Shown: in pieces, positions 5,482 through 21,181 of the stretch | Position numbering within the stretch: the stretch's first letter is position 1 | Layout of the letters: each line of letters begins with the position of its first letter | Source of the DNA: Spirochaetales bacterium | GTDB taxonomy: Bacteria; Spirochaetota; Spirochaetia; JABEVK01 | Assembly (NCBI GenBank): GCA_947478845.1 | Contig: CANJXC010000003.1 | Span: forward strand, 246,004 to 310,003 | DNA: 64,000 bases | Direction of reading: 5' to 3' | Made by a program: the position numbers and the translations under genes | The notes under the pieces: generated by a model | What the model saw: the letters and a program-made list of their open reading frames with translations, nothing else | The model's database searches: none | Told to the model about the DNA's origin: nothing

Positions 5482-5524
5482 GGCACGGAGTATAGACCGT
5501 TCGTGCTGCGAACTGGAAGCTCAA

Positions 5525-5568
5525 GCTTCTTGCTAAGGCTTCTTGCTAAGGCTTCTTGCTCAGGCTTC
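5525..5568. repeat. 13-bp tandem repeat GCTTCTTGCT(A/C)AG, about 3.4 copies
   Basis: Units start at 5525, 5538, 5551, with a partial unit at 5564. Confidence 0.9.
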
Positions 5569-5799
5569 CCATTCTCCGAGTTCTTCGAGTTCGGGGCGGT
5601 ACTCTTGCAGTTTGGCCTTTAGATAGCTGGTACGGATTTTGTCGAACTCGCTGTTGGACACCGGCCGGCCCCAGCGTTCTTCGGCGATTTCGGCGATGTC
5701 GTATTCGTCGTGACCCGGGTATTGCCTCACCAGTTCGGCGACAACGCCTCCCCAGTTGGACGGGCGTGCAGGGTATAAAGTGCGGGTGGTCATGGTCAT
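5560..5799 (-). CDS. Small hypothetical protein (79 aa)
   Basis: AAGGAG RBS, ATG start, protein-like composition, fills the intergenic gap. Confidence 0.65.
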   Translation of the reverse strand: MTMTTRTLYPARPSNWGGVVAELVRQYPGHDEYDIAEIAEERWGRPVSNSEFDKIRTSYLKAKLQEYRPELEELGEWEA

Positions 5800-5872
5800 G
5801 CTTGAGTCTCCTTGCGAGGATTCAGGTCTTCGCTTGATAACAACTTCGCATGGATGGGTGCATTATTGGTGC

Positions 5873-5908
5873 AAAAAAAGCCTACCCATGATGCGGGTAG
5901 GCTTTTTC
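5873..5908. terminator. Intrinsic terminator downstream of the lipoprotein gene
   Basis: AAAAAGCCTACCC-ATGATGC-GGGTAGGCTTTTT hairpin with A and T tracts. Confidence 0.85.
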
Positions 5909-5923
5909 AAAACAATGGCTAAA

Positions 5924-7783
5924 TCAGATTTGCGGGTAGCCGGATAGGTCGGCCTCAACAATGGGAGCCACGCCCAAACCAGTGGCCAGGCCCGAAAGTG
6001 CCGTGGCAGTCACGATTGTGTCTTTGGCCGTGTTGGCTAGTGTCTCCAATTGAGCATGCACACCGCTCATGGCGTCCGTTGTGGTGGAGGCCACCGCAAA
6101 ACCTGGGGGGCAAAGTTCGGTTGAGGTGGCCACGATGCCATACTTTGTCACCACGGCTTGCGTAGCCGGATCCCAATGGCTGAAGTCCATCACTCGCAGA
6201 ACGTTGGTCACATCCAAGTCGCCAGTGCTAGGGTCGAAACCAGTGTGGACTGAACTGGTCTTTTGTAGCCAAAATTGCTCGGGCGATGTGTTGTTTTCCT
6301 TTATGGTGTAACCCGCGCTCACAAGGTCTGAGTTCAGCGTCAGGAACTTCAGAGGGAAAGAGTAAGACTGATAGAAGCCATTTACAGGATCACCGTAATG
6401 CACAACGCGCGCCGGGTACACAAAGCCACGCTGGTAGGTGAAGATTGTGTCGGAGCCTGAGACCTCTCTCTTAGTGTTGTAATAGAGCGCATCTCCTGCA
6501 GCCCAGGTGGTATCGTTTATTGCTGTGTTAGCCTTATAGATCAACATCCAAGGCGCAGGAACAGTAGAACCGTTGAACGCAAGCATAGAGGCCTTCACAT
6601 CGTTGCCGTAGGTTGTTCCTCCGTCCGTGCTGAGTTTGGCGCTGGTGAGAGTGCGGGTCGTCCCTGACCATGACTCGGTCACCTTTACCTTAAGGATTGC
6701 GTCAGCCCCGGGAGCGGAGCTAAGGGCCGTGCCGAAGTCGCTGCCATGGAGGTTGTTAAACTTGGCAGACACGCCAGCAAGCCACGGGAAGTTTGCATTT
6801 TCTTCACCACGAGTCATGCCGATGAGCTCGCCGGAAGCGTTGTAGAACTCCTCGTTGAACTGGTAACTGCCGTCAGAGGCGAAGGCTCCCTTCGAAAGAA
6901 CTCCTCCCGAGGTGTCGTTGCCGTAGGCCACATTGAAGTGGGGCCCATCGCTGCTCAAGAACGAAACATTGCTACCCGACTTGGTGACGCTTTCATAGCG
7001 GCCCTGATCGTAGGTAATGGTACCGTCAGCGTTGGTCTTAGGTCCATACAGCACAGTGTTCGAGCCTGTTTCGGAGTCAAAGGAACCCTGAAAGCCGTAC
7101 TTGAACACATGGCCAGCGGCATACTGGATGTTGTTGGTGGTATCATTAAAGGAACTTGCGAGCGTCTGTGTCCCGTAGAAGGCAAGCTTGGCCTTCATGG
7201 TTGCCGGGGTCAGCGCATTGCTCAGGACAAGGTGAACGTAATAATCATACGTACCGGCCTGGGGGGGGGCCGTGTTCTTAGGAATGCGGAAGTTGCCTGA
7301 ACCACTCATATGCCACTTGATATCCACCGAGTTGCCGGTGTCGTCGAGTTGGTGAATGATGGCCTTACCGGCATCAATTTGATTGGGAACGCCAAGTATG
7401 GCCGCCTGCTCGTTGTTGATGGTGCCCTTGCCCAAGGAATACACAGTTTCCAAGGTAGGCGAGGTGTTATTAGCAAACGCGCTCTGCATGAGCGCCATCA
7501 CGCCCCCTACGACGTTCTCGCTCAGGTCTTTTTGCAGTTGGCCGTAGCCCTTCGATTGAATACCATCCTGGCTCGAGGCAACAACATCCACGACAGCTTT
7601 GCCAGTGCTACTGCTCTTGAGACTTTTCGGGAGCATGGAAGAGCTGGACTGAATGGAGAGCAAAGCCGTGATGGCGGACGATACTGTTGAGCTCAGCGAG
7701 CTCACGGCACTGGTGCAGGAACTCAATGCTACAGCCAGAAGCGTTAGTGCTACCAAAGACTTGGTCCCTAGGGGTAATTTCAT
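5924..7783 (-). CDS. Large hypothetical lipoprotein (619 aa)
   Basis: Signal peptide with lipobox LSS-C, Ser/Thr-rich linker, AAGGAG RBS; no family recognised. Confidence 0.8.
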   Translation of the reverse strand: MKLPLGTKSLVALTLLAVALSSCTSAVSSLSSTVSSAITALLSIQSSSSMLPKSLKSSSTGKAVVDVVASSQDGIQSKGYGQLQKDLSENVVGGVMALMQSAFANNTSPTLETVYSLGKGTINNEQAAILGVPNQIDAGKAIIHQLDDTGNSVDIKWHMSGSGNFRIPKNTAPPQAGTYDYYVHLVLSNALTPATMKAKLAFYGTQTLASSFNDTTNNIQYAAGHVFKYGFQGSFDSETGSNTVLYGPKTNADGTITYDQGRYESVTKSGSNVSFLSSDGPHFNVAYGNDTSGGVLSKGAFASDGSYQFNEEFYNASGELIGMTRGEENANFPWLAGVSAKFNNLHGSDFGTALSSAPGADAILKVKVTESWSGTTRTLTSAKLSTDGGTTYGNDVKASMLAFNGSTVPAPWMLIYKANTAINDTTWAAGDALYYNTKREVSGSDTIFTYQRGFVYPARVVHYGDPVNGFYQSYSFPLKFLTLNSDLVSAGYTIKENNTSPEQFWLQKTSSVHTGFDPSTGDLDVTNVLRVMDFSHWDPATQAVVTKYGIVATSTELCPPGFAVASTTTDAMSGVHAQLETLANTAKDTIVTATALSGLATGLGVAPIVEADLSGYPQI

Positions 7784-7802
7784 AAAATCTCCTTGCGGAA
7801 AC

Positions 7803-7830
7803 TTTATCGGGACTTTGTCACATTTTTGTC
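7803..7830 (-). promoter_or_regulatory. Three 11-bp-periodic GA(C/T)AAA boxes, putative OmpR/PhoB-type site
   Basis: Minus strand reads GACAAAaatgt-GACAAAgtccc-GATAAA, about 20 bp upstream of the lipoprotein start. Confidence 0.5.
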
Positions 7831-9072
7831 TCGGGCCTGTCCTTTGTTGGTCTGTCCAAACTCGAGGATGGCCGTAGTACCCTCGCCGAATACGCTTTCG
7901 ATAAGCAATTGACCACCCTGCGCTTCCATCAGAGATTTGACAACGCGCAGGCCCAAGCCGCTGTGCTGGTCGCCGGGACTTCGGGCCGCACTGACCTGAT
8001 AGAATGGTTCGGTGACAAAAGGGAGCTTTTCTGCAGGGATTCCTGGTCCTGTATCGCGCACCACGATGCGGGGACGGTCAAGTTCGACTACCTCAACCGA
8101 GACAGAGGATCCAGGCCCACCGTAGGTGAGGGCGTTGTCCAACAGGTTGTCGAGACACTGCGCCACCCTATCGGGATCAGCAACCACTGAAACCGGACCT
8201 TCGCTGGTCACAACCAGCAACAGTTTTGATCTCTGGGATAGGGCTTGGTCTTGTCGGTTCTCGATACACGAGCTGACCAATTCGCCCAAATCCAGTTTCT
8301 GAGAGTGCAGAGGAAGCTCTTTCAGGTCAAGGCGGGAGAGCTCCAGCAGGTCGCTGACCAGGCGCAACAGACGGTCTGCCGTACGGGAAATAGAATCGAC
8401 GGCTCTTCGATGCCGTTCTGGGTCGTTCGCCAGCCCATCCCGCAGCGCTCCAGCCATAGTAGAGAGGGTGGTCAACGGGGTTCGAAACTCATGGGCGATG
8501 TCTGCCATAAATTGCCTGCGTGCAAGGCCCTCGTGTTGAAGCTCTCTCATTTGGTAGGAAATCCGTGCCCCAAGGGTATCAAGGGTAACGGCCAATTCTG
8601 TCAGCTCACCGGGACCCCGAAGGGTGGGTTTCTGCAAATAGTTTCCCTCCGTCATGGCTCGGGCCGTCGAGATAAGCGAATTGAAAGACTTGCTGAATCT
8701 CAGCCAAAAGGCGAAACCGACGAACAAGGAGAAAAAAACACCGGCGCTCATCTTCCAGATGAAGATTCTAACCGTGATGCCTGCACGCTCCACGTCAAAG
8801 CGCTTGATATCGTCACCCGGCGGCTGAGAACTCGTGGCAGGGTGAAGTACCGGAAAAGCCCCCAGGTAGAACTCAGAGTATCCAAAATGTGGAGGACTTG
8901 GTGGGTTTGGATACAGGCTCGGATGCGCAACCGCGAAATCGTAGTCGTCTTTTTCCCTCAAGTAAAGGAGGTAGTTGCTGATTCCCACGGAGACAATTCC
9001 GCTCACGAAAGTGATGAGAAAGACGGCGATGGTGATTTCCCACCGGAGGCTAAGCTTCCGGACGGAAGGCAT
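7804..9072 (-). CDS. HAMP-domain sensor histidine kinase
   Basis: Two TM segments, HAMP, H-box ADIAHEFRTPLT, NLLDNAL, DTGPGI, GLGL. Confidence 0.92.
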   Translation of the reverse strand: MPSVRKLSLRWEITIAVFLITFVSGIVSVGISNYLLYLREKDDYDFAVAHPSLYPNPPSPPHFGYSEFYLGAFPVLHPATSSQPPGDDIKRFDVERAGITVRIFIWKMSAGVFFSLFVGFAFWLRFSKSFNSLISTARAMTEGNYLQKPTLRGPGELTELAVTLDTLGARISYQMRELQHEGLARRQFMADIAHEFRTPLTTLSTMAGALRDGLANDPERHRRAVDSISRTADRLLRLVSDLLELSRLDLKELPLHSQKLDLGELVSSCIENRQDQALSQRSKLLLVVTSEGPVSVVADPDRVAQCLDNLLDNALTYGGPGSSVSVEVVELDRPRIVVRDTGPGIPAEKLPFVTEPFYQVSAARSPGDQHSGLGLRVVKSLMEAQGGQLLIESVFGEGTTAILEFGQTNKGQARDKNVTKSR

Positions 9073-9742
9073 AGCCCACCCCTCGAATCGTGACAATGGG
9101 GCAGTCGGCGAGTCCGGCGCCGATGAGCTTCTCTCTGAGCCGGTAAATCTGGTTGTCTACCTGGCGCATGCCTACATGGTAGGTGTCGCCGTCGCCCCAC
9201 ACCTTGCGGATCAACTGATTCCGGTTGAAGACGGTCTTCGGTTGCTCCATGAGTGTCACCAAGAGGTCAAACTCAAGGGAGGTCAAAACCACGTCTTTGG
9301 ACTCAACTACCACCCGGTGCTCGTCCAGATAAACCGCTAGTCCGGACCATTGGAGCGATGCAGCGTTCTGAGTTTCCCGCTTGGTTCGCCGCAAGAGCGC
9401 TCTCAAACGCGAGACCACCTCGGCAGCTGAAAAAGGTTTCGTGACGTAGTCGTCGGCACCTTTGTCCAGAGCCCGGATTTTGTCCATTTCTCCCTCTCGT
9501 GCCGAGAGCATCAGGATGGGGACAGTCGATTGGCGTCGGATTCTCTCGCAAACCGATACGCCGTCGAGCTCAGGCATCATGACATCGAGAATGACGAGGT
9601 CGGGTTGTTTGGAGGAGAACCTTTCGAGGGCTTCCCGGCCATTAGTTGCGCGCACGACTTCAAAACTTGCGGCTTCCAAATACCAGCTCAAACCTTCGAT
9701 GAGATCGCCATCATCGTCGACAACCAAGACAACAGTACTCAT
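9050..9742 (-). CDS. OmpR-family response regulator
   Basis: VLVVDDD, DLVILDVMMP, GADDYVTKPF, winged helix ending TIRGVGY. Confidence 0.95.
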   Translation of the reverse strand: MSTVVLVVDDDGDLIEGLSWYLEAASFEVVRATNGREALERFSSKQPDLVILDVMMPELDGVSVCERIRRQSTVPILMLSAREGEMDKIRALDKGADDYVTKPFSAAEVVSRLRALLRRTKRETQNAASLQWSGLAVYLDEHRVVVESKDVVLTSLEFDLLVTLMEQPKTVFNRNQLIRKVWGDGDTYHVGMRQVDNQIYRLREKLIGAGLADCPIVTIRGVGYAFRPEA

Positions 9743-9846: not shown

Positions 9847-10527
9847 TTAGTCGGGTGAACGGGTCTTTTTGCCAATCTGGCGTCCTTTAGCAGCCTTCAG
9901 TGCAGCCTCAACATTCGATTCCGCCCATTCGATATTGCGACTGATGGCGATGAGGGCATTCTTCAGGTCACGGCGACGCACCGCGTTGATGATTTCCAAG
10001 TGGTCGACGCAAGTTTTGGCGAGGCGCTCTAAGTTGGTAATGTCTGAGAGCCTGACGAAATGGATCTGCGAGTCGATGGCAGCCAAACTCTTGGCCAACA
10101 CACTGTTTCCCGTAGCCTCGGCCAACGCATGGTGGAAGTGCTCGTCTTCCTCGGCGGCATGGATGAAGAGGTCGGGCAGGCCATCGCGCAGTTCGGTCCA
10201 GCGGGCTTCCAGGCGGTCAAGGAATGCGTGATCTAGTTCCTGTTTGCACAGCAACGACACCACTTCAAGTTCCAAGACGAGCCTGACATGGTAGGCATCC
10301 CGTATTTCTTTGAGCTCAAGTTCGCGCACCGCATAGTTCTGACGGGGATTTTTTTTTACCAAACCCCGTTGCACCAACATGTTGAGCGCCTCTCGAACAG
10401 GGCTACGACTGACCTGGAACTCGGCGCAAAGACCTTCCTCGGTCAGCCTGTGTCCCGGGGCATATTCGAGTTTGAGAATCCGAAGGCTTAATCGCTCGTA
10501 GATATCGACACTGAGGTTTTCAGCCAA
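9847..10527 (-). CDS. GntR (FadR/FCD) transcriptional regulator
   Basis: wHTH VSRSPVREAL and FCD DEHFH...DHLEII; TTG start after GGAGGAG chosen, start uncertain. Confidence 0.9.
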   Translation of the reverse strand: MAENLSVDIYERLSLRILKLEYAPGHRLTEEGLCAEFQVSRSPVREALNMLVQRGLVKKNPRQNYAVRELELKEIRDAYHVRLVLELEVVSLLCKQELDHAFLDRLEARWTELRDGLPDLFIHAAEEDEHFHHALAEATGNSVLAKSLAAIDSQIHFVRLSDITNLERLAKTCVDHLEIINAVRRRDLKNALIAISRNIEWAESNVEAALKAAKGRQIGKKTRSPD

Positions 10528-10666
10528 CTTCTCTCCTCCCTGGCGCATCCATCGCCTGTTCAATGTATATCAGTATACAATAAATATCCAATTTTGTAGT
10601 TCACCACAGCAATTGATAAAAACTAACTCTATATATTACAATTAAATAATGACATTTAACAATTTG

Positions 10667-10711
10667 TTGACAGTTTTACAATCTCCCCATACAATGAAAA
10701 TTGTATACAAT
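10667..10711 (+). promoter_or_regulatory. Sigma70 promoter with GntR-type operator at +1
   Basis: TTGACA(10667)-17 bp-TACAAT(10690); palindrome ATTGTATACAAT at 10700-10711; related site CAGTATACAA at 10571-10580 ahead of gntR. Confidence 0.8.
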
Positions 10712-10775
10712 ATCGGCGTTGCCGTTGATCTTTGGGGCTTATCCCCGCGCATTCGATCGAAATGAGGAGTTTCGC

Positions 10776-12368
10776 ATGCCACAAGAATTGACCAAACCGA
10801 AGCTGTGGGTTCTAGGAGACCTGAACGGGTTTTTCGGCCTGTTCACCAATGTTCTTCTCAACACCATTGTCCTGACTAGTCTTTCACTCTTTGTGGTGAA
10901 AATCCCTGAGGCCACGGTTTACGGGCGCATTCTTCCCGCTCTGGGGCTTGCGCTGATGCTTGGCAACATTTTTTATGCTTATCTGGCTTACCAAAAAGCC
11001 AGAAAAGAGCAGCGGGACACCGTCGCGGCCTTGCCCTATGGGCCCTCGGTTCCGCACATGTTCATCGTGGTCTTCGCTGTCATGTTGCCCTCATATCTGG
11101 CTACACAGGATCCTCTTTTGGCATGGGTTCTTGGACTCATTTGGGCCCTCATCATCGGCCTGATTGTCATGGCTGGTGCGCTCATTGGCCCCATCATCCG
11201 CAAATACACGCCCAAGGCGGCCATGTTGGGCACTTTGGCCGGCATTTCGATCACCTTCATCTCGATGGCTCCGGCCTTTCAGATGTTCGACGTCGCTTGG
11301 ATTGGCCTGATCTGTTTCATGATCATCATGATTTCGTGGATGGGTAATGTGCGTTTGCCCTTCGGCATCCCTGGTGGTCTGGCGGTCGTCCTGGTCGGAG
11401 CCATCCTAGCTTGGGGTGCGGTGTTGCTCGGCTTGCCAGGGTACTCAACCCTCATGCACCCCGAAGCGGTTACGGCATCGTTCCAGCAGTTCGGCCTGCG
11501 CCTGCCCACCTTCAGCTTCGATGTCTTCTCGAAATCCGCTGACTTGGTTTGGCCACTGTTGGTCACGGCTATCCCCCTGGGCATCTACAACTTCACCGAG
11601 GCCATGAACAACGTCGAGTCTGCCGCGACGGCCGGTGATGACTACGACCTCCGCGCGGTGTTGCTGGCCGACGGTACAGGCGCCGTTTTAGGCGCGTTTG
11701 CCGGTTCGCCCTTTCCTCCCGCTGTGTACATTGGCCATCCCGGCTGGAAGGCCATCGGTGGACGCATCGGCTACTCGTTAGGCACAGGAATCGCCATCGG
11801 GCTGGTCTGCATGCTCGGGCTCACGGCCCTGCTGCTGGCTGTTATTCCCCTAGTCGCCATCCTACCAATTCTTCTCTTCATTGGCCTCATCATTGGCTCG
11901 CAGGCCTTCCAGGCCACCCCAAGACGCCACGCTCCGGCGATCATTTTGGCCCTCGTGCCCAACATTGCCGATTGGCTTCACACCCAAGTGAACAATGTGG
12001 TATCGGTCGCAACCGGCACAGGCGTGACCCCCAAGCTCGCTGCCGACCTAGCCTCGAATGTTTCGGTGTACTACACAGGCATGTCGGTTGCCGGTGGAGG
12101 TGGAATCCTAGCCGGTTTGGTGCTCGGTGCCATCGGGGTGTTTGTGATTGAGAAGCGCTTCAATTGGGCCGCCGTCTACGCGGGCATAGCAACGGTGTTG
12201 TCGTTCTTCGGCTTCATCCACGGCAGCCAGCTCGCCGTCAACGCCTCACCCACAGTGACCTTCGCTTACCTGGTTTCTACATTGATCTTTGTCTACTTCA
12301 TGTACCAAGAGAAAAAAGATGGACGCGGAATCAGCTGGAAGCCCATCAGCGAAGCTGCGGACGACTGA
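10776..12368 (+). CDS. NCS2/AzgA-like permease (putative ureide or nucleobase transporter)
   Basis: Many TM helices; GDLNGFFGL, ALPYGPSVPH, NNVESAATAGDDY, PPAVYIGHPGWK; GAGGAG RBS. Confidence 0.8.
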   Translation: MPQELTKPKLWVLGDLNGFFGLFTNVLLNTIVLTSLSLFVVKIPEATVYGRILPALGLALMLGNIFYAYLAYQKARKEQRDTVAALPYGPSVPHMFIVVFAVMLPSYLATQDPLLAWVLGLIWALIIGLIVMAGALIGPIIRKYTPKAAMLGTLAGISITFISMAPAFQMFDVAWIGLICFMIIMISWMGNVRLPFGIPGGLAVVLVGAILAWGAVLLGLPGYSTLMHPEAVTASFQQFGLRLPTFSFDVFSKSADLVWPLLVTAIPLGIYNFTEAMNNVESAATAGDDYDLRAVLLADGTGAVLGAFAGSPFPPAVYIGHPGWKAIGGRIGYSLGTGIAIGLVCMLGLTALLLAVIPLVAILPILLFIGLIIGSQAFQATPRRHAPAIILALVPNIADWLHTQVNNVVSVATGTGVTPKLAADLASNVSVYYTGMSVAGGGGILAGLVLGAIGVFVIEKRFNWAAVYAGIATVLSFFGFIHGSQLAVNASPTVTFAYLVSTLIFVYFMYQEKKDGRGISWKPISEAADD

Positions 12369-12371
12369 GCC

Positions 12372-12761
12372 ATGCCTAAGATTCTCTTTGTCAACGGGAC
12401 CTTGATGCGGGGTCTTGGCCTCCACAAGAATCTCGCCGGCGCTGAGTTTCTAGGTGAGTTCGTCACAAAAGCCAAGTACCGTGTGTTCAGTATCGGCGAC
12501 GTTCACCCTGGCATGTACGAAGTGAAGCAGGGTGGAGTTGCTTTCGCCGGAGAACTGTATCGGCTCCCCGACGACGTTTGGAAGCGGGTGGAAGCCGGCG
12601 AACCTCCTCACCTGTACGATGGCCCGGTGGAACTGGAAGACGGCCGGATCGTCGACGGAATCCTGTATCCTCGAGACAAGATTCGAAGCGAACACGTCGA
12701 CATCTCTGAGTTTGGAGATTGGCGCAAGTACATGGCGAGCAAGAAGGGGAACCCAACATGA
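12372..12761 (+). CDS. Gamma-glutamylcyclotransferase-fold protein (allophanate hydrolase C-terminal-domain-like; candidate carboxy-ureide decarboxylase)
   Basis: [23 protein letters not shown]...[17 protein letters not shown] resemble the AtzF/Dur1,2 C-domain. Confidence 0.75.
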
Positions 12762-13423
12762 AGAAAGAAATCGTCGCGCAGCCCTACAACCTTAAGTTTG
12801 ACCCTAAGACGACTGCGCTCATCGTGATCGACATGCAACGGGATTTTGTCGAAGAAGGCGGCTTTGGAACCCTTCTTGGCAACGATGTCTCGCTCCTCCG
12901 AGCGGCGATAAAACCTTGCCAGGCGCTTCTCAAGGCCGCTCGGCAAGCCGGTCTTCGGGTTTTGCACACCCGCGAGGGTCATGATCCATCGATGTCAGAT
13001 TGTGCTCCCACCAAGAAGGCCAGAGGAAACTTGAAGACTGGAATTGGCGACAGCGGACCTATGGGCCGGATTCTCATCCGGGGTGAGAAGGGCCACGGAA
13101 TCATTCCAGAACTTCAACCCCTGCCCACCGAAGCCGTGATCGACAAGCCCGGCAAGGGTTCGTTCTACGGCACCGATCTTGACCTTATTTTGCGCAACTA
13201 CGGCATCAGCACCCTGTTGGTTTGCGGAGTCACCACCGAAGTCTGCGTGACAACAACAGTGCGAGAAGCCAACGACCGCGGCTATGAGTGTGTGGTCGCC
13301 TCTGACGCCGTTGCTTCGTATTTTCCCGAATACAACCGGATGGCTTTGGAAATGATTCAGGCTCAGGGCGGGATTTTTGGCTGGGTAACCCCCTCGCAGC
13401 ACATCATCGAAGCGATTTCGTAA
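12758..13423 (+). CDS. trtA: Isochorismatase-family cysteine hydrolase, triuret hydrolase (TrtA)-type
   Basis: D-K-C triad (IDMQRDF, DKPGKG, TTEVCV); GGFG..LGND, TEVC, ASYF and QGGI match TrtA as recalled, rather than BiuH (GGYV..MGYD, TDVC, GATD, QGGV). Confidence 0.75.
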
Positions 13424-13430
13424 CCGACGG

Positions 13431-14231
13431 ATGGCTGGCATACTCAGGGCCAAAGACTACGGCGATCGTGTCTTTCGTGGCGAAGAAACTGCAACAGTGC
13501 ATTCAGTTTTTGAGCGGGGATTCAACCTCGCGATGGCCGACGGCCGGCTAGTTCACGTTGCTATCGACAAACCCTCTGAGCATTCTCAAATGGTGGGCTT
13601 CGGCGCCTGCGCGGGTGCTTGGCTTGGGCCAGAAGTGGGGAGCCGGTTTCAGGTTTCAGAATCGCGAAAGCTTTTGCAAGGCTCAAACTTGGTAATCGAT
13701 TGCCGCCACGCGTTACCGTTGGAAGCCCTTGCCCTGCAAGCAACCTGCCTTTCTCAGGAGCAGTTGCGACAAATTAACAGCTCGGTGCGAATCAGGATGC
13801 AAGGCCGGGACTTGGAACATTGGCAGGTGTATTTCACCGCGATTGAGTCTCAGGTTCGGGCTTTCGCGTCCACGGGCAGGGTAGGGCACCTCGAGTCTGT
13901 GGTCGGACTAGGGCTGGGACTCACGCCTACTGGGGACGACGTTCTGGTGGGTCTTTTGGCGTCTCTGAAGAGCCGGGGTTCGCAGCACACAAAAGACCTC
14001 GAAGACCTGATGCGGGGCTACGCGGACCGAACTACCGACGTGAGTGCCGATCTGTTGAGGGCAGCGGCCGCAGGGTACTTTCCGTTTGCGCTGGTAGATC
14101 TGGCCAACTCAAAACCCGACCGTGGAGCGGGGGAAATCGAGTCTTTGGTGACGCGCATCTGCGCCATCGGGGCTACGTCGGGAATGGATACTCTGCTCGG
14201 ATTTATGATGGGAATGCAGGAGGTTCATTAA
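13431..14231 (+). CDS. DUF2877 protein (AllH/YahE-like)
   Basis: VHSVFERGFN, GLGLGLTPTGDDVLVG, RTTDVS, GATSGMDTLLG. Confidence 0.85.
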   Translation: MAGILRAKDYGDRVFRGEETATVHSVFERGFNLAMADGRLVHVAIDKPSEHSQMVGFGACAGAWLGPEVGSRFQVSESRKLLQGSNLVIDCRHALPLEALALQATCLSQEQLRQINSSVRIRMQGRDLEHWQVYFTAIESQVRAFASTGRVGHLESVVGLGLGLTPTGDDVLVGLLASLKSRGSQHTKDLEDLMRGYADRTTDVSADLLRAAAAGYFPFALVDLANSKPDRGAGEIESLVTRICAIGATSGMDTLLGFMMGMQEVH

Positions 14232-14233
14232 CC

Positions 14234-15769
14234 ATGGAAAACACACAACACTTCCTCACAGGGTATTACCGCGACTCAGTGGCCTTGATGCAGCTCTCGT
14301 CCAAGCTCGCCGCGCAAGAGGGGATTGCTTCCGCCTCGGCGCAAATGGCTACGGCCGCCAACCTTGAACTTCTGGTGAATGCCGGTTTGCTCGACCAGGT
14401 TGTGCCCGCCCGCCCGAACGACCTGCTGCTTGTCATCCGAGCCTCGACGGCCGAGCACGGGCAAGCCGCGTTCGAGTTTGCCAAGAAGACTCTTGACGAA
14501 AAACCCTCGGGGGGCGGCCCCGAAAAACCCGAGCCGCCGCGTTCGGTTGAAATGGCACTTTCTGCGCATCCAGAAAGCAATCTGGTTCTCATCTCGACCC
14601 CGGGGGAGTTTGCCGCAGCGGAAGCGCTCAAGGCCCTAAAACAGGGGCTCAACGTGATGATCTTCAGCGACAACGTTTCTGGAGCGCAGGAGGTCATGTT
14701 AAAGACCTATGCCCGCGACCATGAACTGCTGGTGATGGGCCCCGATTGTGGAACCTCCCTTATTGGTGGAGTTCCGTTGGCGTTTGCCAATGTAGTGGCC
14801 GCGGGGGCCATCGGTGTCGTGGGGGCTTCCGGTACGGGCATTCAGCAAGTCACTTGCCTCGTGGATGCGCTGGGCGAGGGGATCTCTCACGCTATTGGTA
14901 CTGGTGGTCACGACCTGAGTGAAGAGGTTGGCGGGATCACGATGCTCTCAGCCTTGGATTTGCTGGCCCATGACAACAACACGGAAGTGATTGTTTTACT
15001 TTCCAAACCCCCGGCTAGGTCGGTGGCGTTGAAGATCATCGCTGCGGCCAAGCTTGTGCCCAAGAAGGTTGTGATCTGTTTCCTGGGGGCAGTCGAACAA
15101 CTCGATGGAAGCAACCTCTCGTACGCTCGCACCTTGGAAGAGGCGGCCATGCTTGCTGTGGGTCTGCTTCGCCCCTCACGAAAGCTATCCCTCACCGGCC
15201 GCCTGGTGAGGGAAAAAAATCAGCTCGACCCCCATCGCACCAAAGGCTTTGTACGGGGCCTTTATACCGGTGGTACCTTCTGCTACGAAGCGCAAATCCT
15301 GCTTCAGTCTGCCCTTGGTGAGGTGTATTCCAATATTCCTACCAAGGGTGTCAAAAAACTTCCTGACCTTTGGACAAGCGTGGGCCATACCATCCTCGAC
15401 TTGGGCGACGATGTTTTCACCCGGGGCAAGCCGCATCCGATGATCGACCCCTCCACCCGTAATGAAAGGCTTCTCAAAGAGGCCCTTGACCCCCAAACCG
15501 GACTTATCTTTTTTGATCTGGTGCTGGGTTACGGAGCTCACGAAGACCCCGCGGCCGGTCTTGTCGAGGTGATCCGCCAGGCACGTGAATCGGCCCACAA
15601 AGGCGGCCGGAGACTCGAGTTCGTGGGCTTTATTTGTGGCACGACGAAGGACCCCCAGGGCTTCGAAAAACAGGCTTCCACCCTCCGTGGCGCGGGTGTG
15701 ATTTTAGCGCAAAGCAATGCCCACGCCGCCGAGATGGTGCAATACCTCGTTACCGGGAGGCTTTTGTGA
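14234..15769 (+). CDS. fdrA: FdrA/AllF-like acyl-CoA-synthetase-fold protein
   Basis: YRDSVALMQ, IFSDNV, VMGPDCGT, GASGTG, GLYTGGTFC, DLGDDVFTRGKPHPMIDP. Confidence 0.9.
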   Translation: MENTQHFLTGYYRDSVALMQLSSKLAAQEGIASASAQMATAANLELLVNAGLLDQVVPARPNDLLLVIRASTAEHGQAAFEFAKKTLDEKPSGGGPEKPEPPRSVEMALSAHPESNLVLISTPGEFAAAEALKALKQGLNVMIFSDNVSGAQEVMLKTYARDHELLVMGPDCGTSLIGGVPLAFANVVAAGAIGVVGASGTGIQQVTCLVDALGEGISHAIGTGGHDLSEEVGGITMLSALDLLAHDNNTEVIVLLSKPPARSVALKIIAAAKLVPKKVVICFLGAVEQLDGSNLSYARTLEEAAMLAVGLLRPSRKLSLTGRLVREKNQLDPHRTKGFVRGLYTGGTFCYEAQILLQSALGEVYSNIPTKGVKKLPDLWTSVGHTILDLGDDVFTRGKPHPMIDPSTRNERLLKEALDPQTGLIFFDLVLGYGAHEDPAAGLVEVIRQARESAHKGGRRLEFVGFICGTTKDPQGFEKQASTLRGAGVILAQSNAHAAEMVQYLVTGRLL

Positions 15770-17178
15770 ACAACTTTCTTACCAGCAAAACGCAAGTCAT
15801 CAACATCGGTTTGGCTTCGTTTTCCCCCCCTATCCGGTCGCACGGCGGCACCTCGGTTGACCTGGAGTGGCGTCCGCCGGCCGAAGGCAACAGTGCTTCG
15901 GGATTGGCGTTGGCCCAGCTGATGAGCGACGGCAAGATCAATGCTGCCAACCAAGTGGCTTTGGAGCGTTACCAGGCGGCTCAGCCTATCCTCGTCGGAG
16001 TTGGGGTGGCTCGAGAAGAGCTCAAAGGTCTCGGGCCCCGTATGCTACTGCACTCCGGACCTCCCATCGCCTGGGAAAATATGTGCGGCCCGCAAAAGGG
16101 TGCGGTGCTCGGCGCCATTGTTTTTGAAGGTTGGGCCAGCACGCTCCTAGAAGCCGAAAGTTTAGTGGCCCACGGGGAGGTGAAACTCGACGCCTGCAAC
16201 CACCACAGCGCAGTTGGTCCCATGGCCGGCATCATTAGTCCTTCCATGCCTGTGTGGATCATCGAGAACACCACGCACGGCAACCGCTCCTACTGCAACA
16301 TGAACGAAGGGCTGGGCAAGGTGCTTCGTTTCGGCGCCAACGGCCCCGAGGTCATTGAACGCCTGGTTTGGATGCGTGAGGTGCTCGGCCCCACAGTGAA
16401 ATCCATCTTGCAACACCTGGGCCCGGTTGCTCTGGGGCCCCTGATAGCGCAGGCCCTGCACATGGGCGACGAGGTTCACAACCGCAATGCGGCAGCCAGT
16501 GGCCTTTTCTTCAAAAAGCTCACCCTCGCAGGCCTTGAAATCCTTGCCAAATTGGACGCCAGAAAACTAAAAGATACCCTGGCCTTCATTGCCGCCAACG
16601 ATCACTTTTTCCTGAACCTTTCCATGGCGGCCTGCAAAGTGATGCTCGAAGCCGCCGATGGTGTCGAGAACTCCACGATGGTAACCGTCATGGCCCGCAA
16701 TGGCGTCGATTTTGGCATCCAGATTTCTGGCCTCAAGGGGCGCTGGTTCACCGCTCCAGCACCCTTTGTCGAGGGGCTGTTTTTCTCCGGCTACAGCCAG
16801 CTCGATGCCGCCCGCGACCTAGGTGACAGCGCCATCACCGAAACCGCAGGTGTGGGCGGCTTCTCGATGGCTGCCTCTCCCGCCATTGTTCAGTTTGTCG
16901 GGGGAACCCCCGCAGACGCCCTTGCCAACACGCGAAGAATGTTGCAAATCACGCTCGGTCAAAACTCTGCCTTTACCTTGCCGGCGCTCAACTTTGGGGG
17001 TTGCCCGGCGGGGATCGATGTTCGAAAGGTGGTCGACTCTTCCATCCTTCCGGTGATCAACACCGGAATTGCCCACAAGCTTGCGGGCATAGGACAAATC
17101 GGAGCAGGCATTACCCACGCCCCGCTTTCCTGCTTTGTGAAGGCAGTCGAGGCCTTGGCCCTCAAAGGAGTGAACTAA
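15766..17178 (+). CDS. DUF1116 protein (AllG/YlbE/YahG-like)
   Basis: LLHSGPPI, VGPMAGIISPSMP, NEGLGKVLRFGA, MGDEVHNRN, DLGDSAITE, INTGIAHK; GTG start overlaps the fdrA stop. Confidence 0.9.
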   Translation: MNNFLTSKTQVINIGLASFSPPIRSHGGTSVDLEWRPPAEGNSASGLALAQLMSDGKINAANQVALERYQAAQPILVGVGVAREELKGLGPRMLLHSGPPIAWENMCGPQKGAVLGAIVFEGWASTLLEAESLVAHGEVKLDACNHHSAVGPMAGIISPSMPVWIIENTTHGNRSYCNMNEGLGKVLRFGANGPEVIERLVWMREVLGPTVKSILQHLGPVALGPLIAQALHMGDEVHNRNAAASGLFFKKLTLAGLEILAKLDARKLKDTLAFIAANDHFFLNLSMAACKVMLEAADGVENSTMVTVMARNGVDFGIQISGLKGRWFTAPAPFVEGLFFSGYSQLDAARDLGDSAITETAGVGGFSMAASPAIVQFVGGTPADALANTRRMLQITLGQNSAFTLPALNFGGCPAGIDVRKVVDSSILPVINTGIAHKLAGIGQIGAGITHAPLSCFVKAVEALALKGVN

Positions 17179-17179
17179 A

Positions 17180-18154
17180 ATGGCAGGAAGCAAAATTGTC
17201 GTTATCGCTGTTGGAGGAAATGCCCTCATTAAGGACGCCAACAGGAACTCGATCGCCGACCAGTTTGAGGCGGCCGAACAGACCGCAAAAATGGTGGTGC
17301 GTCTGGTCAAAGAGGGCTGGCGAGTTGTACTGACCCACGGCAACGGACCACAGGTAGGCTTTGCCCTGCGCCGCTCGGAGTTGGCCGCCAAAGAGCTGGC
17401 GCCGGTGCCCATGGACTACGCCATAGCCAACACGCAGGGAACCATTGGCTATATGTTTCAAAAGGCTTTCTACGAAGCATTTGCCCAAGAAGGGATGGAC
17501 GTGCCCGTCGCAACAGTGATCACGCAAACCATCGTAAGCAAGGATGACGTTGCGTTTCTCAACCCATCCAAGCCCATTGGCGCGTTTTACGAAGAGGAAG
17601 TGGCCAAACACCTGGCCCAGGAGATGGGCTGGACGGTCATGGAAGATTCGGGACGCGGTTGGCGGCGTTGTGTTCCTTCTCCCGCCCCGCTCGAACTCGT
17701 CGAGTTCAGACAAATCAAGAAACTCTCCGAGGACGGCTACCTCGTCATTGCCTGCGGAGGCGGAGGTATGCCTGTTGTGCGCGAGGGTAAGGTGCTAAAA
17801 GGCATTGAAGGCGTCATCGACAAAGACCTTACCTCTGCCCTTTTGGCCAGCCTGCTCAAAGCCGATTACTTAGTGATTCCAACAGCTGGTGGCGATGGCA
17901 TCGCTCTTGATTTTGGTAAACCCACCGAGCGACGCCTCGCCAAACTGACCTTTGCGGAGGCGAAACAACGCTGCGAGGCAGGTTATTTTGCCAAAGGAAG
18001 CATGCTCGAAAAGGTCATGGCCACCGTAAAATACACCGGAAATTACCCCGAGGGCACAGCAATCATCACAACCTTAGACCGCATGCTCGAGGCTATTCGA
18101 GGAGACGCCGGTACACAAATTAGCCAGCGAATCGCAGAGACAATCTCGCGCTGA
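17180..18154 (+). CDS. arcC: Carbamate kinase
   Basis: VIAVGGNAL, THGNGPQVG, PSKPIG, EDSGRGWRRCVPSP, GGGGMPV, VIDKD, GSMLEKV. Confidence 0.95.
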   Translation: MAGSKIVVIAVGGNALIKDANRNSIADQFEAAEQTAKMVVRLVKEGWRVVLTHGNGPQVGFALRRSELAAKELAPVPMDYAIANTQGTIGYMFQKAFYEAFAQEGMDVPVATVITQTIVSKDDVAFLNPSKPIGAFYEEEVAKHLAQEMGWTVMEDSGRGWRRCVPSPAPLELVEFRQIKKLSEDGYLVIACGGGGMPVVREGKVLKGIEGVIDKDLTSALLASLLKADYLVIPTAGGDGIALDFGKPTERRLAKLTFAEAKQRCEAGYFAKGSMLEKVMATVKYTGNYPEGTAIITTLDRMLEAIRGDAGTQISQRIAETISR

Positions 18155-18171
18155 CGCATTAATATGGACGG

Positions 18172-20202
18172 GTGAAATACCAAAAGTCTGACCTAGTTCT
18201 TATTGTTGCTCACTCCACGGTTCGTGCCCACGACCTCTTGGAGCCATTGGAGGAGCTGAATCTGCGCCACGAGTTCCGAACAGCTTCGCAAGTGCACGAA
18301 GTCGACCCTGCAAACTACGCAGCGTTGTGGCTGATGGCTGGCCCCAATCCGCATCCAGAAGTGCTCAGCCCTGAACTTTCTGAGTTGGCGCAAGGGTTCT
18401 TGACGGCGGGTTTGGGGGTTTTTGCAGAGTTTGTCAGAGGGTTTGTCCCTTTGGGCGCTGAGGGGAAACTGCGCCGAGCCGGAGCTGCCCGAGTGGTTGT
18501 CGGCGAGGGTTTTGGGGGAGCAGGCGCCCTTCCCCGCGACAGAATTCTCGTAGCCCACGATGCCCTCACGTTGGAGATTCCCAAAAAACACCTTGTGTTT
18601 GCTAGCTTCGAAGACGTCGTCGGTACGAACCGAGTTCTCTCTCGCCATGGTACCCCTTGGCCCGCCTTAGTTGGCGGGGAGGCTGTCGGTAAATGGGTCT
18701 GGTCGGCCTTTAGGTTATCTGACTTTGTCCACAGGCAGTTTTCGCCTCAGGTTTGGTGGCGTGCTCTGGTACGGGACGTTCTTCGCTGGCTGCTTTCACC
18801 CGAGGCCCGGGAGCGAACTGAGGCCCACAGCATTCCTGTGGCCGTTTGGACAGAACCCAGGACTTGGGCGCCCGGAACGCTGGAAGTGGTGGTGAATACG
18901 CTCCCGGGGGCGCAGGTTACAGCGATAGGCTTGGAGTTCCAGGAACAGACCCTAGGACACTTTGTGGCAACAGCGCACGCAGCAGGGACTTGGTCGGTCA
19001 AAGTTACCAGAGACAACCGATCCCGCAACCACCGTGTGACCTCAGAAGGTGGCGACCGTATGCGTGCCTATCGCCGGTCTCTGGACAGAAGTTTGGGCTG
19101 GTTTGAACATTCAGGCGTGCTCTTGGCTGCAGACGGGTCGCTGGGAGTTGCCCAGTGGATTTCAGGCCCCGATGGAGAGGGCAAACGCATCCCCTTCGGT
19201 AAAGAGCAGATGTTCGACCCCGGCCGAGCCGACTCCCTGTTTCAATCGGGGCTGGCCTTTCTTCAGTACGGAACCCTGGCTTCAGATCCACGGCACCGGT
19301 CGATAGGCCGCAACATCCTCCTTCGTGTTCTTGAGTTCCAAAGGCTTTCCCCCGACGACGAGTTCGGGGGCCTGTGGTTTACCCGGGGCCGCTCCGGGCC
19401 TCCTTACGAACAGGATGAGGCCATGGCCATTCTTTTTTCCCTCGCGGCCTGGAACGATACGGGTGAGAGCCTCTTCCTCGAGCGGGGCATGCTCGCGGCC
19501 CGCAAGAGTCTGGACTTATTCGGCTTAGGGACTTCTGCCAGCTCCAAGGCCACTAACGACACCGAGCACCCTAGCGTCAGGGGCCAAATGTATGCGGCTT
19601 GGTTGGCAGTGTTTCTCGCTACCGGCGAAACTCAGTACCGAGACCAAGCGCTCGCTGGCCTTCTGAACATGCGCGAACGTTGGAAAGTAGTCCAAAAGAC
19701 GACTATTTCGCAGACCTCTGAGGCCGCACGTTGGTTGCTCCCCCTAGCGTTGGCTTGCCGTTGTTCGGACAACCCGGTTTTTCGTGAGGAATTGGCGACA
19801 ACGGCAGCCTACTTGCGCTCCCGAAGAGCCCCCTGTGGTGCCATCCGGGAGGAGTGCCACAACCCTGAGGGCAGTCACGACAACACGGAACCCTTAAGTG
19901 ACCAACTGTACACGACGGGGTGGGGTGCCTTAAACCTGTTGACCGCTTACAGGTTCACTGGCGAAAAAGTTTACTTGGAAGATTTTGAGATTCTCATGGA
20001 TTATCTGGTTCGCATCCAGTGTCGCACCGAAGACCGCAGCCTCTACGGTGGATGGACCCGCTGCTTCGACTTTAACCTGTGGGAAAGCCATGGTTCCAAT
20101 GCCGACCTCGGGAGTGCTTGGTGCCTGGAGACCGGTTGGTGCAACGCCATCATCGCGCTCGCTCTGGCTGGCTACTTAAAAGAGCGTACTGAGAAAGCTT
20201 GA
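18172..20202 (+). CDS. Hypothetical protein with C-terminal (alpha/alpha)-barrel, glycoside-hydrolase-like
   Basis: Repeated helix-hairpin ends (NDTGESLF, ATGETQY, FTGEKVY) and aromatic-rich C-terminus GGWTRCFD...WCLETGW. Confidence 0.6.
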   Translation: MKYQKSDLVLIVAHSTVRAHDLLEPLEELNLRHEFRTASQVHEVDPANYAALWLMAGPNPHPEVLSPELSELAQGFLTAGLGVFAEFVRGFVPLGAEGKLRRAGAARVVVGEGFGGAGALPRDRILVAHDALTLEIPKKHLVFASFEDVVGTNRVLSRHGTPWPALVGGEAVGKWVWSAFRLSDFVHRQFSPQVWWRALVRDVLRWLLSPEARERTEAHSIPVAVWTEPRTWAPGTLEVVVNTLPGAQVTAIGLEFQEQTLGHFVATAHAAGTWSVKVTRDNRSRNHRVTSEGGDRMRAYRRSLDRSLGWFEHSGVLLAADGSLGVAQWISGPDGEGKRIPFGKEQMFDPGRADSLFQSGLAFLQYGTLASDPRHRSIGRNILLRVLEFQRLSPDDEFGGLWFTRGRSGPPYEQDEAMAILFSLAAWNDTGESLFLERGMLAARKSLDLFGLGTSASSKATNDTEHPSVRGQMYAAWLAVFLATGETQYRDQALAGLLNMRERWKVVQKTTISQTSEAARWLLPLALACRCSDNPVFREELATTAAYLRSRRAPCGAIREECHNPEGSHDNTEPLSDQLYTTGWGALNLLTAYRFTGEKVYLEDFEILMDYLVRIQCRTEDRSLYGGWTRCFDFNLWESHGSNADLGSAWCLETGWCNAIIALALAGYLKERTEKA

Positions 20203-20260: not shown

Positions 20261-21181
20261 GTGAACAACCTTTATGTGATTGGCAGTCTTAACATGGACC
20301 TCGTGGGCAGGTCGCCCCGCTTCGTAGAACCGGGTGAAACCCTCATGGGTGGTACCTTCGGCCAATACCCCGGTGGCAAGGGGGCCAACCAAGCGGTTGC
20401 TTTGGCGCGCCTGGGCGGCAAGCCCCTTCTCATCGGGGCCCTCGGCGATGACACGTTTGGACGCGCCTACCGGGAAATCCTTGGCGCGGAAGGCATTGAT
20501 GATCGCAACATCGTCACCAAGAAAGGGTCTGCCACCGGTGTGGCCATGATAGAGGTAGCGGAAACCGGTGAAAACCGCATCCTTGTCCTTCCCGGGGCCA
20601 ACACCCAGTTGACTCCAGAAGATGTACTACCTGCCCTGGCAAAGCTCCAGCCAGGAGATCTGGTTCTGATGCAACTCGAAATTGCACTGGCGACGGTCAT
20701 CGCCCTCATTCCCGCCATCCATGCGCGGGGGGGGCGGGTTATTCTCGACCCCGCGCCTGCGGCAGTGCTACCGAAGTTGGTATTGCAAAACGTGGACATT
20801 ATGACTCCGAATCAAACCGAGGCTCAGTTGATGGCAGGGATCACTTCGGCAGAGGCTCTTGCGGTAGATTTGACTCCGGCAAGGGTTTTGTGTGACCTAG
20901 GAATTCCAGTTGTGGTGCAGAAAGCGGGCCGCCATGGCGCCTGGTGGGTGCAAAAGGGCCTGGAAAAGCAGTTTCCCGCCTTTCCCGTGACGGTGGTTGA
21001 TACTACGGCGGCGGGTGATACCTTTAACGCAGGCTTGGCCCTTGCTCTCGCCCAGGGGAAACCCCTAGAAGAAGCCATGACTTGGGCCAACGCCGCGGCC
21101 GCACTTTCCACCACCAAACACGGCGCCCAAGCGGGGATGCCAACTTGGAACGAAGTTCAGAACTTCCTTGCGCAACGCTGA
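20261..21181 (+). CDS. rbsK: Ribokinase
   Basis: GSLNMD, PGGKGANQA, TPNQTE, DTTAAGDTFN. Confidence 0.9.
   Translation: MNNLYVIGSLNMDLVGRSPRFVEPGETLMGGTFGQYPGGKGANQAVALARLGGKPLLIGALGDDTFGRAYREILGAEGIDDRNIVTKKGSATGVAMIEVAETGENRILVLPGANTQLTPEDVLPALAKLQPGDLVLMQLEIALATVIALIPAIHARGGRVILDPAPAAVLPKLVLQNVDIMTPNQTEAQLMAGITSAEALAVDLTPARVLCDLGIPVVVQKAGRHGAWWVQKGLEKQFPAFPVTVVDTTAAGDTFNAGLALALAQGKPLEEAMTWANAAAALSTTKHGAQAGMPTWNEVQNFLAQR

Follow-up and report, generated by a model that had tools for sequence, protein, structure and literature searches.

A TrtA-type hydrolase gene coupled to AllFGH-like and carbamate kinase genes in a Spirochaetales bacterium: a candidate phosphorolytic route for triuret

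The DNA considered here, 64,000 nts of contig CANJXC010000003.1 from a Spirochaetales bacterium (assembly GCA_947478845.1) and termed the window below, contains an operon in which the gene for a TrtA-type cysteine hydrolase is followed by genes for relatives of the three subunits of E. coli oxamate carbamoyltransferase (AllF, AllG and AllH) and for carbamate kinase, and is preceded by genes for a permease and for a small protein that consists of an AH_C domain only. The operon probably serves the GntR-controlled use of triuret, or of a very close polyureide, by phosphorolytic steps that would yield ATP. The sole described route for breakdown of triuret and biuret is hydrolytic (TrtA, TrtB, BiuH and AtzF are given for Herbaspirillum sp. 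BH-1 and Rhizobium leguminosarum in the available text of PMC7948467). There is good support for a branch beyond TrtA that proceeds by phosphorolysis, yields ATP and replaces BiuH and AtzF.

We infer the catalytic steps, the direction of carbamate kinase and the role of the regulator from sequence. The permease would import a triuret-like compound, and the TrtA-type hydrolase would release one ammonia from it to yield carboxybiuret. The complex of AllF-, AllG- and AllH-like subunits, which is paralogous to oxamate carbamoyltransferase and would differ from it in specificity, would then split off a terminal carbamoyl group with phosphate, giving carbamoyl phosphate. From this and ADP, carbamate kinase would form ATP and carbamate, and the carbamate would go to NH3 and CO2.

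To see in what company TrtA is found, one genome per species was scanned. This gave 585 TrtA relatives, of which the best 80 (61–71% identical), chosen by likeness to the window protein, were taken; up to 10 kb was fetched on each side and stop-to-stop open reading frames (ORFs) were searched with the window proteins. At least 6 kb was available on both sides for 51 of the 80 loci, and among these AllF/G genes occur in the absence of a BiuH paralogue at 26, a BiuH paralogue in the absence of AllF/G at 17, both at two and neither at six; over all 80 the numbers are 32, 28, 2 and 18, respectively. (The BiuH-like paralogue at BiuH-type loci shows about 50% identity.) Clusters of TrtA, DUF2877/FdrA/DUF1116 and carbamate kinase without biuH, for which a first-pass annotation of the window had proposed a survey, are thus recurrent. 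Carbamate kinase accompanies AllF/G at 31 of 34 loci and the BiuH type never. The same division is seen in whole genomes: a true BiuH, for which more than 370 bits was required, is present in four of the 32 genomes with AllF/G-type loci, AtzF in seven and urease in 22, and eight of them, like the window genome, have neither urease nor AtzF. The genomes with BiuH-type loci have BiuH in 25 of 27 and AtzF in 21 of 27, and AllG matches, all weak, in three of 28. Since the gene set recurs in 32 of 80 loci across several phyla, the arrangement is not due to chance, and a functional tie of the AllFGH-like genes and carbamate kinase to TrtA, in the place usually occupied by BiuH and AtzF, is supported by gene context. 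More nearly independent evidence comes from the occurrence of the cluster without detected BiuH in hosts belonging to Pseudomonadota, Actinomycetota, Verrucomicrobiota, Chloroflexota, Bacillota and Spirochaetota. [Two genomes of the survey, G048 and G053, are unpublished. All-against-all clustering of the neighbouring ORFs was muddied by shadow ORFs and served only to choose representatives for Pfam searches; these were mostly unrelated (ABC transporter, sigma-54 activator, SDR, LysR).]

The window's own assembly (2.99 Mb, rated 99.75% complete) was searched as a whole. The BiuH family has a single match in it, the operon's TrtA-type gene; no AtzF scores above cut-off in the genome, the amidase-signature proteins being GatA and two generic amidases, all well short of that cut-off; the urease alpha subunit was not found in it, nor was urea carboxylase (biotin carboxylase only). 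AllC and AllE have no match genome-wide, and an AllD-like match, on another contig, is weak (25% identity). There is one AllG gene and one carbamate kinase gene. The genome thus offers neither the classical outlet for biuret nor a supply of oxalurate, and the biuH and atzF of the classical triuret operon are missing from operon and genome alike. The statement of the first-pass annotation that biuret hydrolase, the amidase domain of AtzF, urease and allantoin genes are absent from the window holds and, save for the weak AllD-like match, can be extended to the genome.

The hydrolase aligns without gaps to Herbaspirillum TrtA (6xix) at 282.6 bits and to BiuH structures at 216–217 bits, and its score with the BiuH model of NCBIfam, 272.8, is below the cut-off of 370. 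Residue numbering and mutagenesis data from the TrtA paper (PMC7948467) were mapped through the gapless 6xix alignment. At the sequence level, the catalytic triad D24/K129/C162 and the cis-peptide residues V157-T158 are present at the aligned positions, as are the contacts F29, E72, K132 and Q202. Five of the six residues that discriminate TrtA from BiuH are kept (F35, N41, E160, Y187 and I205), A134 alone being replaced, by S. BiuH has Y, Y, S, D, T and V at positions 35, 41, 134, 160, 187 and 205, and A134S was the sole harmless substitution in the mutagenesis of TrtA (both from the available text of PMC7948467); among the 82 TrtA-type proteins that were compared, 21 likewise have S at 134. 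Across these 82, from both contexts, F35, N41, E160, Y187 and Q202 are invariant and I205 is L in one, whereas 29 BiuH paralogues have Y, Y, D and T at 35, 41, 160 and 187, and V at 205. As the specificity residues are the same in both contexts, the hydrolase of the AllF/G context bears no sign of a change of substrate. In the tree, it lies within the TrtA clade and apart from BiuH (support of 100 for each clade). The TrtA-type residues claimed for it at first pass are therefore real, and its predicted reaction is conversion of triuret to carboxybiuret and NH3; TrtA is reported to be ultraspecific for triuret (available text of PMC7948467).

All three subunit families of AllFGH are represented downstream of the hydrolase gene, with arcC adjoining. 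The AllF-like protein scores 507.7 bits with NF004760 (cut-off 433) and 312.8 bits with FdrA (3dmy), and the AllG-like protein 416.5 bits with 3clq; carbamate kinase is above the cut-off of NF009007 (335.2 bits, cut-off 266) and slightly below that of TIGR00746 (355.5 bits, cut-off 358.25). E. coli AllFGH with AllK comprises the same three families beside a catabolic-type carbamate kinase (PMC11326118 and PMC9843812, in their available parts), and the chemistry proposed here, in which an N-acyl urea is phosphorolysed and ATP is then made from the resulting carbamoyl phosphate, is the same. However, the window set is linked to TrtA and not to allDCE, its host has no oxalurate route, and identity to the E. 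coli proteins is 46% for AllG, 43% for AllF and 40%, over 112 residues, for AllH. A TrtA-linked set also exists in E. coli as an accessory cluster (below), and to its AllG and AllF the window proteins are 60% and 48% identical, respectively. A third paralogous AllF/G/H-like set of E. coli, YahEFG-YahI-YahJ, likewise has a carbamate-kinase-like gene and a hydrolase, but that hydrolase, YahJ, is of the amidohydrolase family and not a cysteine hydrolase (YahG and YahF are 48% and 41% identical to the window AllG and AllF).

A quick maximum-likelihood tree was made from 55 AllG proteins, 35 of them TrtA-linked, and 31 of the 35, including those of the window and of the E. coli accessory cluster, form one clade in it (SH-aLRT 98). 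The allDCE-linked AllG proteins and the Yah proteins form separate clades, with support of 100 each, and four TrtA-linked proteins (L024, L037, L057 and L072) are outside the main clade. By this quick tree, the window AllG is in a different clade from the E. coli AllG that was assayed, and is not its ortholog. Serratia sp. L9 and Atlantibacter subterraneus each have all three AllF/G systems in their typical contexts, and this coexistence is hard to square with a single common substrate. A strong AllH match was found at 22 of the 32 AllF/G-type loci and at none of the actinobacterial group, so AllH appears dispensable in part of the TrtA-linked clade. H401 of AllF, in a GKPHPMID motif, is near-invariant in 49 AllF/YahF/FdrA-type proteins, and the histidine of the GTGGHD loop is variable; H401 might take part in catalysis of the phosphate chemistry.

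It could be argued that the operon merely brings together two unrelated neighbours, TrtA on the one hand and, on the other, an oxamate carbamoyltransferase of the ordinary kind, specific for oxalurate that the cell scavenges. Pfam and NCBIfam do assign the subunits to the AllF/G/H families, and the sole assayed member uses oxamate/oxalurate (available text of PMC11326118). In comammox Nitrospira, trtA/biuH/atzF are co-located with allFGHK, and PMC12625717 (2025), in the text available, reads this as an oxalurate pathway beside a triuret pathway. Nevertheless, such a pairing is very improbable for the operon described here. The genes form one operon and are translationally coupled with TrtA, their AllG clade is apart from the allDCE-linked one, and Serratia and Atlantibacter have a separate All-type system alongside the TrtA-linked set. 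Furthermore, the module substitutes for BiuH and AtzF rather than being added to them, TrtA alone would lead to a dead end at carboxybiuret or biuret in 28 of the 32 genomes, and a gene for consuming oxamate is not evident in the operon.

With phosphorolysis by the TrtA-linked complex preferred, there is the further issue of what the complex splits. The version favoured here is carboxybiuret + Pi → carbamoyl phosphate + allophanate, after which the allophanate could undergo a second phosphorolysis, lose its carboxyl group through the AH_C protein to give urea or, where AtzF exists, be hydrolysed by it. If the complex also takes allophanate, triuret would be fully mineralised with a yield of 2 ATP and no urea, which would suit the window genome because both urease and AtzF are missing from it. 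In the alternative version, essentially that of the first-pass annotation, the AH_C protein, acting as a TrtB-like enzyme, decarboxylates carboxybiuret, the complex converts biuret and Pi to urea and carbamoyl phosphate, and carbamate kinase makes ATP from the latter. This alternative is rather unlikely, though more credible than the pairing of unrelated neighbours. The part of the earlier claim that stands is the tie of the complex and carbamate kinase to TrtA in place of BiuH and AtzF, for which the complementary loci and genomes, the AllG clade, the TrtA specificity residues common to both contexts and the lack of an oxalurate source are the evidence; as to biuret being the substrate, clusters with an adjacent AtzF gene and the archaeal contigs described below point at least as much to carboxybiuret or allophanate.

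The AH_C-only protein bears on both versions. PF21986 spans residues 5–122 of its 129, and AH_C residues are conserved over 32 stand-alone copies and five AtzF C-domains. The nearest solved structure is 5c5z (73.8 bits), which we take to be c4763 of uropathogenic E. coli. The protein presumably decarboxylates an N-carboxy ureide, either carboxybiuret or allophanate. Its stop codon overlaps the TrtA start (ATGA), and its gene is present at 15 of 28 AllF/G-type loci compared with one of 17 BiuH-type loci (4 of 28 when all TrtA-BiuH loci are counted). Such coupling and enrichment fit a need for quick formation of biuret. The lack of a detected BiuH in 28 of the 32 AllF/G-type genomes also speaks for the biuret version, in which TrtB is taken to be of the AH_C family. 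On the other hand, the clusters have either an AH_C-only gene or AtzF, as if both handle the same intermediate.

The clusters with AtzF are five in number and betaproteobacterial in type (L014, L018, L021, L028 and L032, in genomes G004, G007, G009, G012 and G013, respectively): a full-length AtzF gene is divergent from TrtA-AllH-AllF-AllG-carbamate kinase. Neither BiuH nor urea carboxylase scores above cut-off in these five genomes, so the allophanate must come from within the pathway, and the biuret version has to find a source for it. (The AtzF gene of G007 has an in-frame TAG.) Consistent with carboxylated substrates, contigs of ammonia-oxidising archaea have biuH and allFGHK, often without atzF (PMC12625717, available text); they would form allophanate without AtzF to consume it. 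Biuret lacks the carboxylate of oxalurate, to which carboxybiuret and allophanate appear the closer analogues.

The fate of urea is also pertinent. Urease, present in 22 of the 32 genomes, is encoded on the same contig about 12–20 kb from the cluster in G004, G007 and G012, which favours the biuret version, but where both urease and AtzF are missing, as here and in the eight other genomes, release of urea would cost the cell half of the nitrogen that remains. A gene of the urea-transporter family (PF03253) follows carbamate kinase at six loci, mainly of Actinomycetota (L060, at 5052–6215, L066, L071, L081, L086 and L087), and might be taken to favour the biuret version. However, it is found only at clusters without the unnamed permease, most of which are also without AH_C and AllH, so the PF03253 proteins may be importers and cannot discriminate between the versions. 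Nor need stoichiometry do so: it can be the same in both, with AH_C decarboxylating allophanate to urea. On balance there is a slight leaning to carboxylated ureides, rather than biuret, as what is phosphorolysed.

Two loci from Anaerolineaceae metagenome-assembled genomes (L024 and L037) are hybrids in which AH_C, TrtA and BiuH adjoin AllF/AllG; genes for a branched-chain-type ABC permease are nearby.

The permease, a membrane protein of about 530–555 amino acids (there are two possible starts), has no match in Pfam, even at E≤10, or in NCBIfam, and an atlas lead to PF00860 had a score of only 0.89. An AlphaFold model made with 46 homologues (pLDDT 86.2) resembles transporters with 7+7 transmembrane segments, SVCT1, UraA, UapA, SLC26 and BicA, with TM-scores of 0.43–0.57 at a probability of 1.00 and no match to a family model. 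By its model, then, the permease appears to be a distant, unnamed branch of this fold. Homologues are beside TrtA at 59 of the 80 loci, of both context types, and it is this constancy that makes it a candidate importer of triuret. Yah-type clusters of Serratia sp. L9 (L124, 6853–8505) and Atlantibacter (L126, 7345–8934) have a homologue with 38% identity between yahG and yahI, where E. coli K-12 has just a short 'yahH'; the family therefore accompanies two of the three AllF/G-type systems.

Transporters vary among the clusters, from the unnamed permease and the urea-transporter family to an NCS1 'cytosine permease' in E. coli, and one explanation would be that the substrate is another acyl-urea or ureide, e.g. 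a product of purine or pyrimidine oxidation. On this account, a hydrolase of a TrtA subclade has drifted in specificity and the AllFGH-like complex phosphorolyses its product. The AllF/G-linked TrtA proteins are indeed mostly in a subclade of their own, and the E. coli region is listed as possibly pyrimidine-related in a 2026 genome paper (PMC12928451, available part). Yet the residues that mutagenesis showed to be specific for triuret are retained throughout, the enzyme so defined is the one described as ultraspecific, and the same permease family is present at 27 of 28 loci of the classical BiuH context. A different ureide is accordingly improbable, and triuret or a very close polyureide remains the preferred substrate.

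Several considerations weigh against that preferred account. The survey covers the best 80 of 585 relatives, mostly from metagenome-assembled genomes, in which absence is weak evidence. In the TrtA tree, 31 AllF/G-type proteins are in one subclade (SH-aLRT 95) and 19 BiuH-type proteins in another (98); only about 4–8 label changes are needed, so the loci are not independent events. The cluster types would largely be a few old units that spread as wholes between phyla, and these would account for the bulk of the complementarity. The window hydrolase is on a long, unresolved branch of that tree, its AllG branch is long too, and the AllG clade is from a quick tree. The two modules are not mutually exclusive: four of the 32 AllF/G-type genomes have BiuH, both modules are present at two loci and the comammox contigs published in PMC12625717 hold both, in the text available. 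AllH is absent from ten of the 32 AllF/G-type loci and from the cluster of the same genus, though E. coli needs all three genes, and E. coli AllFGH was assayed just with oxamate and carbamoyl phosphate (PMC11326118, available text). As to the versions, an AH_C protein that decarboxylates carboxybiuret would compete with phosphorolysis of the same compound, which favours biuret, and urea, if formed, would go to waste, as the window genome has neither urease nor AtzF.

The E. coli accessory cluster mentioned above was found in strain MS 69-1, where the same set of genes is flanked by ysgA and tkt and has the order cysteine hydrolase, DUF2877, FdrA, DUF1116, arcC, 'allophanate hydrolase-related protein', cytosine permease and LysR (an example is L090, NZ_CP146675 5112898–5121094). 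Of 5426 complete E. coli genomes, 1560 (about 29%) contain DNA of its hydrolase and DUF2877 genes. The set is an apparent ortholog of the window's: the hydrolase is 69% identical, with the TrtA residues kept, carbamate kinase 54% and AH_C 42%, and the AllG proteins share a clade. It differs in having AH_C after carbamate kinase, and in having the NCS1 permease and LysR instead of the unnamed permease and GntR. The literature search gave no functional study of it, and its function is not established in the available parts of PMC12928451 and PMC7558591. Its occurrence in E. coli, together with that of triuret in human urine (PMC7948467, available text), suggests a link to urinary-tract life.

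The layout of the window operon is given in Table 1. The first-pass annotation described a tightly coupled, GntR-controlled operon of seven genes, and all seven are present. The six junctions from permease to carbamate kinase are, in order, a 3-nt gap, the ATGA overlap, gaps of 7 and 2 nts, a GTGA overlap and a 1-nt gap, and with gaps and overlaps of 1–7 nts 'tightly coupled' is correct. The AllG ORF opens with TTG at 15634; the GTG at 15766 that overlaps the AllF stop is preferred as the likely start.

Table 1. Features of the operon region (9847–18154); coordinates are positions in the window.
Feature	Coordinates	Strand	Basis and remarks
GntR-family regulator with FCD ligand domain	9847–10563	−	PF00392 6.3e-17, PF07729 4.3e-17; divergent from operon
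Control region	10564–10775		Promoter-like site and two palindromes
Permease, unnamed family	ORF 10701–12368, likely gene 10776–12368	+	ATG 10776 after GAGGAG ribosome-binding site
AH_C-only protein, 129 amino acids	12372–12761	+	PF21986 5.8e-29
TrtA-type isochorismatase-family cysteine hydrolase	12758–13423	+	6xix match, specificity residues
AllH/DUF2877-like subunit	13431–14231	+	PF11392 2.1e-23
AllF/FdrA-like subunit, succinyl-CoA-synthetase-alpha-like fold	14234–15769	+	NF004760, PF00549 and PF02629
AllG/DUF1116-like subunit	15766–17178	+	PF06545 3.2e-92; GTG start
Carbamate kinase	17180–18154	+	TIGR00746, NF009007

The regulator has an N-terminal GntR helix-turn-helix and a C-terminal FCD domain, the order of GntR/FadR-type proteins, and is presumed to repress the operon. 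GntR genes are also beside the cluster in a genome of the same genus (G064, 71% identity), at L044 and at two of the clusters with adjacent AtzF (L014 and L028). In the control region, a promoter-like TTGACA-17-TACAAT at 10667–10695 has 11 of 12 matches, in a scan that overall was at the level of shuffled sequence. Two palindromes, TGTATA-N4-TATACA (10564–10581) and ATTGTATACAAT (10700–10711), are of the sort that GntR regulators bind and are candidate operators. The terminator scan was also at shuffle level, and no terminator could be placed 3′ of the carbamate kinase gene.

An ORF of 676 amino acids (18172–20202, + strand) begins 17 nts past the carbamate kinase stop and was considered as an eighth member. 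It is probably outside the system, because a homologue is missing at every other TrtA cluster, including that of the same genus. It has no Pfam or NCBIfam match, in the atlas its neighbours are labelled 'hypothetical' and lead weakly to glycoside hydrolases of GH127/GH88-like type, and a ribokinase gene (20261–21181, + strand) follows. On the other side, 5′ of the regulator gene and on the minus strand (5924–9742), there are genes for a response regulator (9050–9742), a histidine kinase (7804–9096) and an ORF of 619 amino acids (5924–7783) without NCBIfam match; none is visibly tied to the operon.

Within the genus of the window genome, AllG is present in three of four other genomes, but it is in none of seven others of the same family; among 29 genomes of the class that belong to different families, two have it. 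Given this patchiness, the cluster is an accessory trait. The one in G064 (L144, 8400–15885) is syntenic, with 70–89% identity, and its TrtA and AllF genes are not separated by an AllH gene.

Metagenomes of freshwater and lakes, from 12 studies, contain DNA of the window genome. Metatranscriptome contigs of 150–295 nts, at least 95% identical and from three freshwater libraries of three studies, match the permease, AH_C, TrtA, AllF, AllG and carbamate kinase genes within 10731–17652, and one of them (12330–12624) crosses the permease/AH_C junction. As DNA carry-over is possible and a single transcript is not demonstrable, they hint at transcription in lakes but are not counted as evidence of expression.

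In the arginine deiminase pathway, phosphorolysis of a ureido compound gives carbamoyl phosphate, from which carbamate kinase makes ATP, and the first-pass annotation had proposed an analogous fermentation. That pathway differs in its transferase, which has the ornithine carbamoyltransferase fold, acts on citrulline and lacks homology to AllF/G/H, and in serving fermentative growth. The window genome has genes for cytochrome bd and for a haem-copper oxidase, and the freshwater samples are of oxic type, so fermentation was not borne out; a gain of nitrogen with ATP as a bonus is the likelier role. In comparison with the classical route, the first enzyme, with its catalytic and discriminating residues, and the permease family are the same, as is the small AH_C-type protein if TrtB is of that kind, but AllF/G/H-like proteins and carbamate kinase take the place of BiuH and AtzF, and besides NH3 and CO2 there would be carbamoyl phosphate and ATP among the end products.

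The novelty claimed at first pass needs dividing. Apart from PMC12625717, the literature search, partly of incomplete texts, found no work in which either ureide is brought together with carbamate kinase and carbamoyl phosphate, and a phosphorolytic link between them was not met there. The co-location of trtA/biuH with allFGHK, in contrast, was in print in 2025 (PMC12625717, available text), the E. coli copy had been annotated and the crystal structure of its AH_C protein solved (5c5z).

Urea fertiliser contains triuret and biuret as impurities, and triuret also arises from urate oxidation (PMC7948467, available text). It may well be, with confidence about evenly divided, that AllF and AllG, with or without AllH, are 'ureide phosphorylases' of at least three specificities (oxalurate, Yah and TrtA-linked), and that the TrtA-linked clade is a widespread, undescribed alternative to BiuH/AtzF that releases carbamoyl phosphate stepwise from polyureides for 1–2 ATP per triuret. 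The candidate substrates are few, and the reverse reaction is open to assay as it was for AllFGH. If correct, the route would span organisms from lake bacteria to Mycobacterium and the roughly 29% of complete E. coli genomes that have the accessory cluster. It would provide a function for the 'uropathogen-specific' c4763 cluster, one that is testable in those 1560 of 5426 genomes, and likewise for the nitrifier contigs with biuH/trtA and allFGHK. Breakdown of triuret would then have a second, energy-conserving route, with a frequency similar to that of the classical one at the TrtA loci surveyed, and oxamate carbamoyltransferase would be the first member of a broader, multi-substrate enzyme family.

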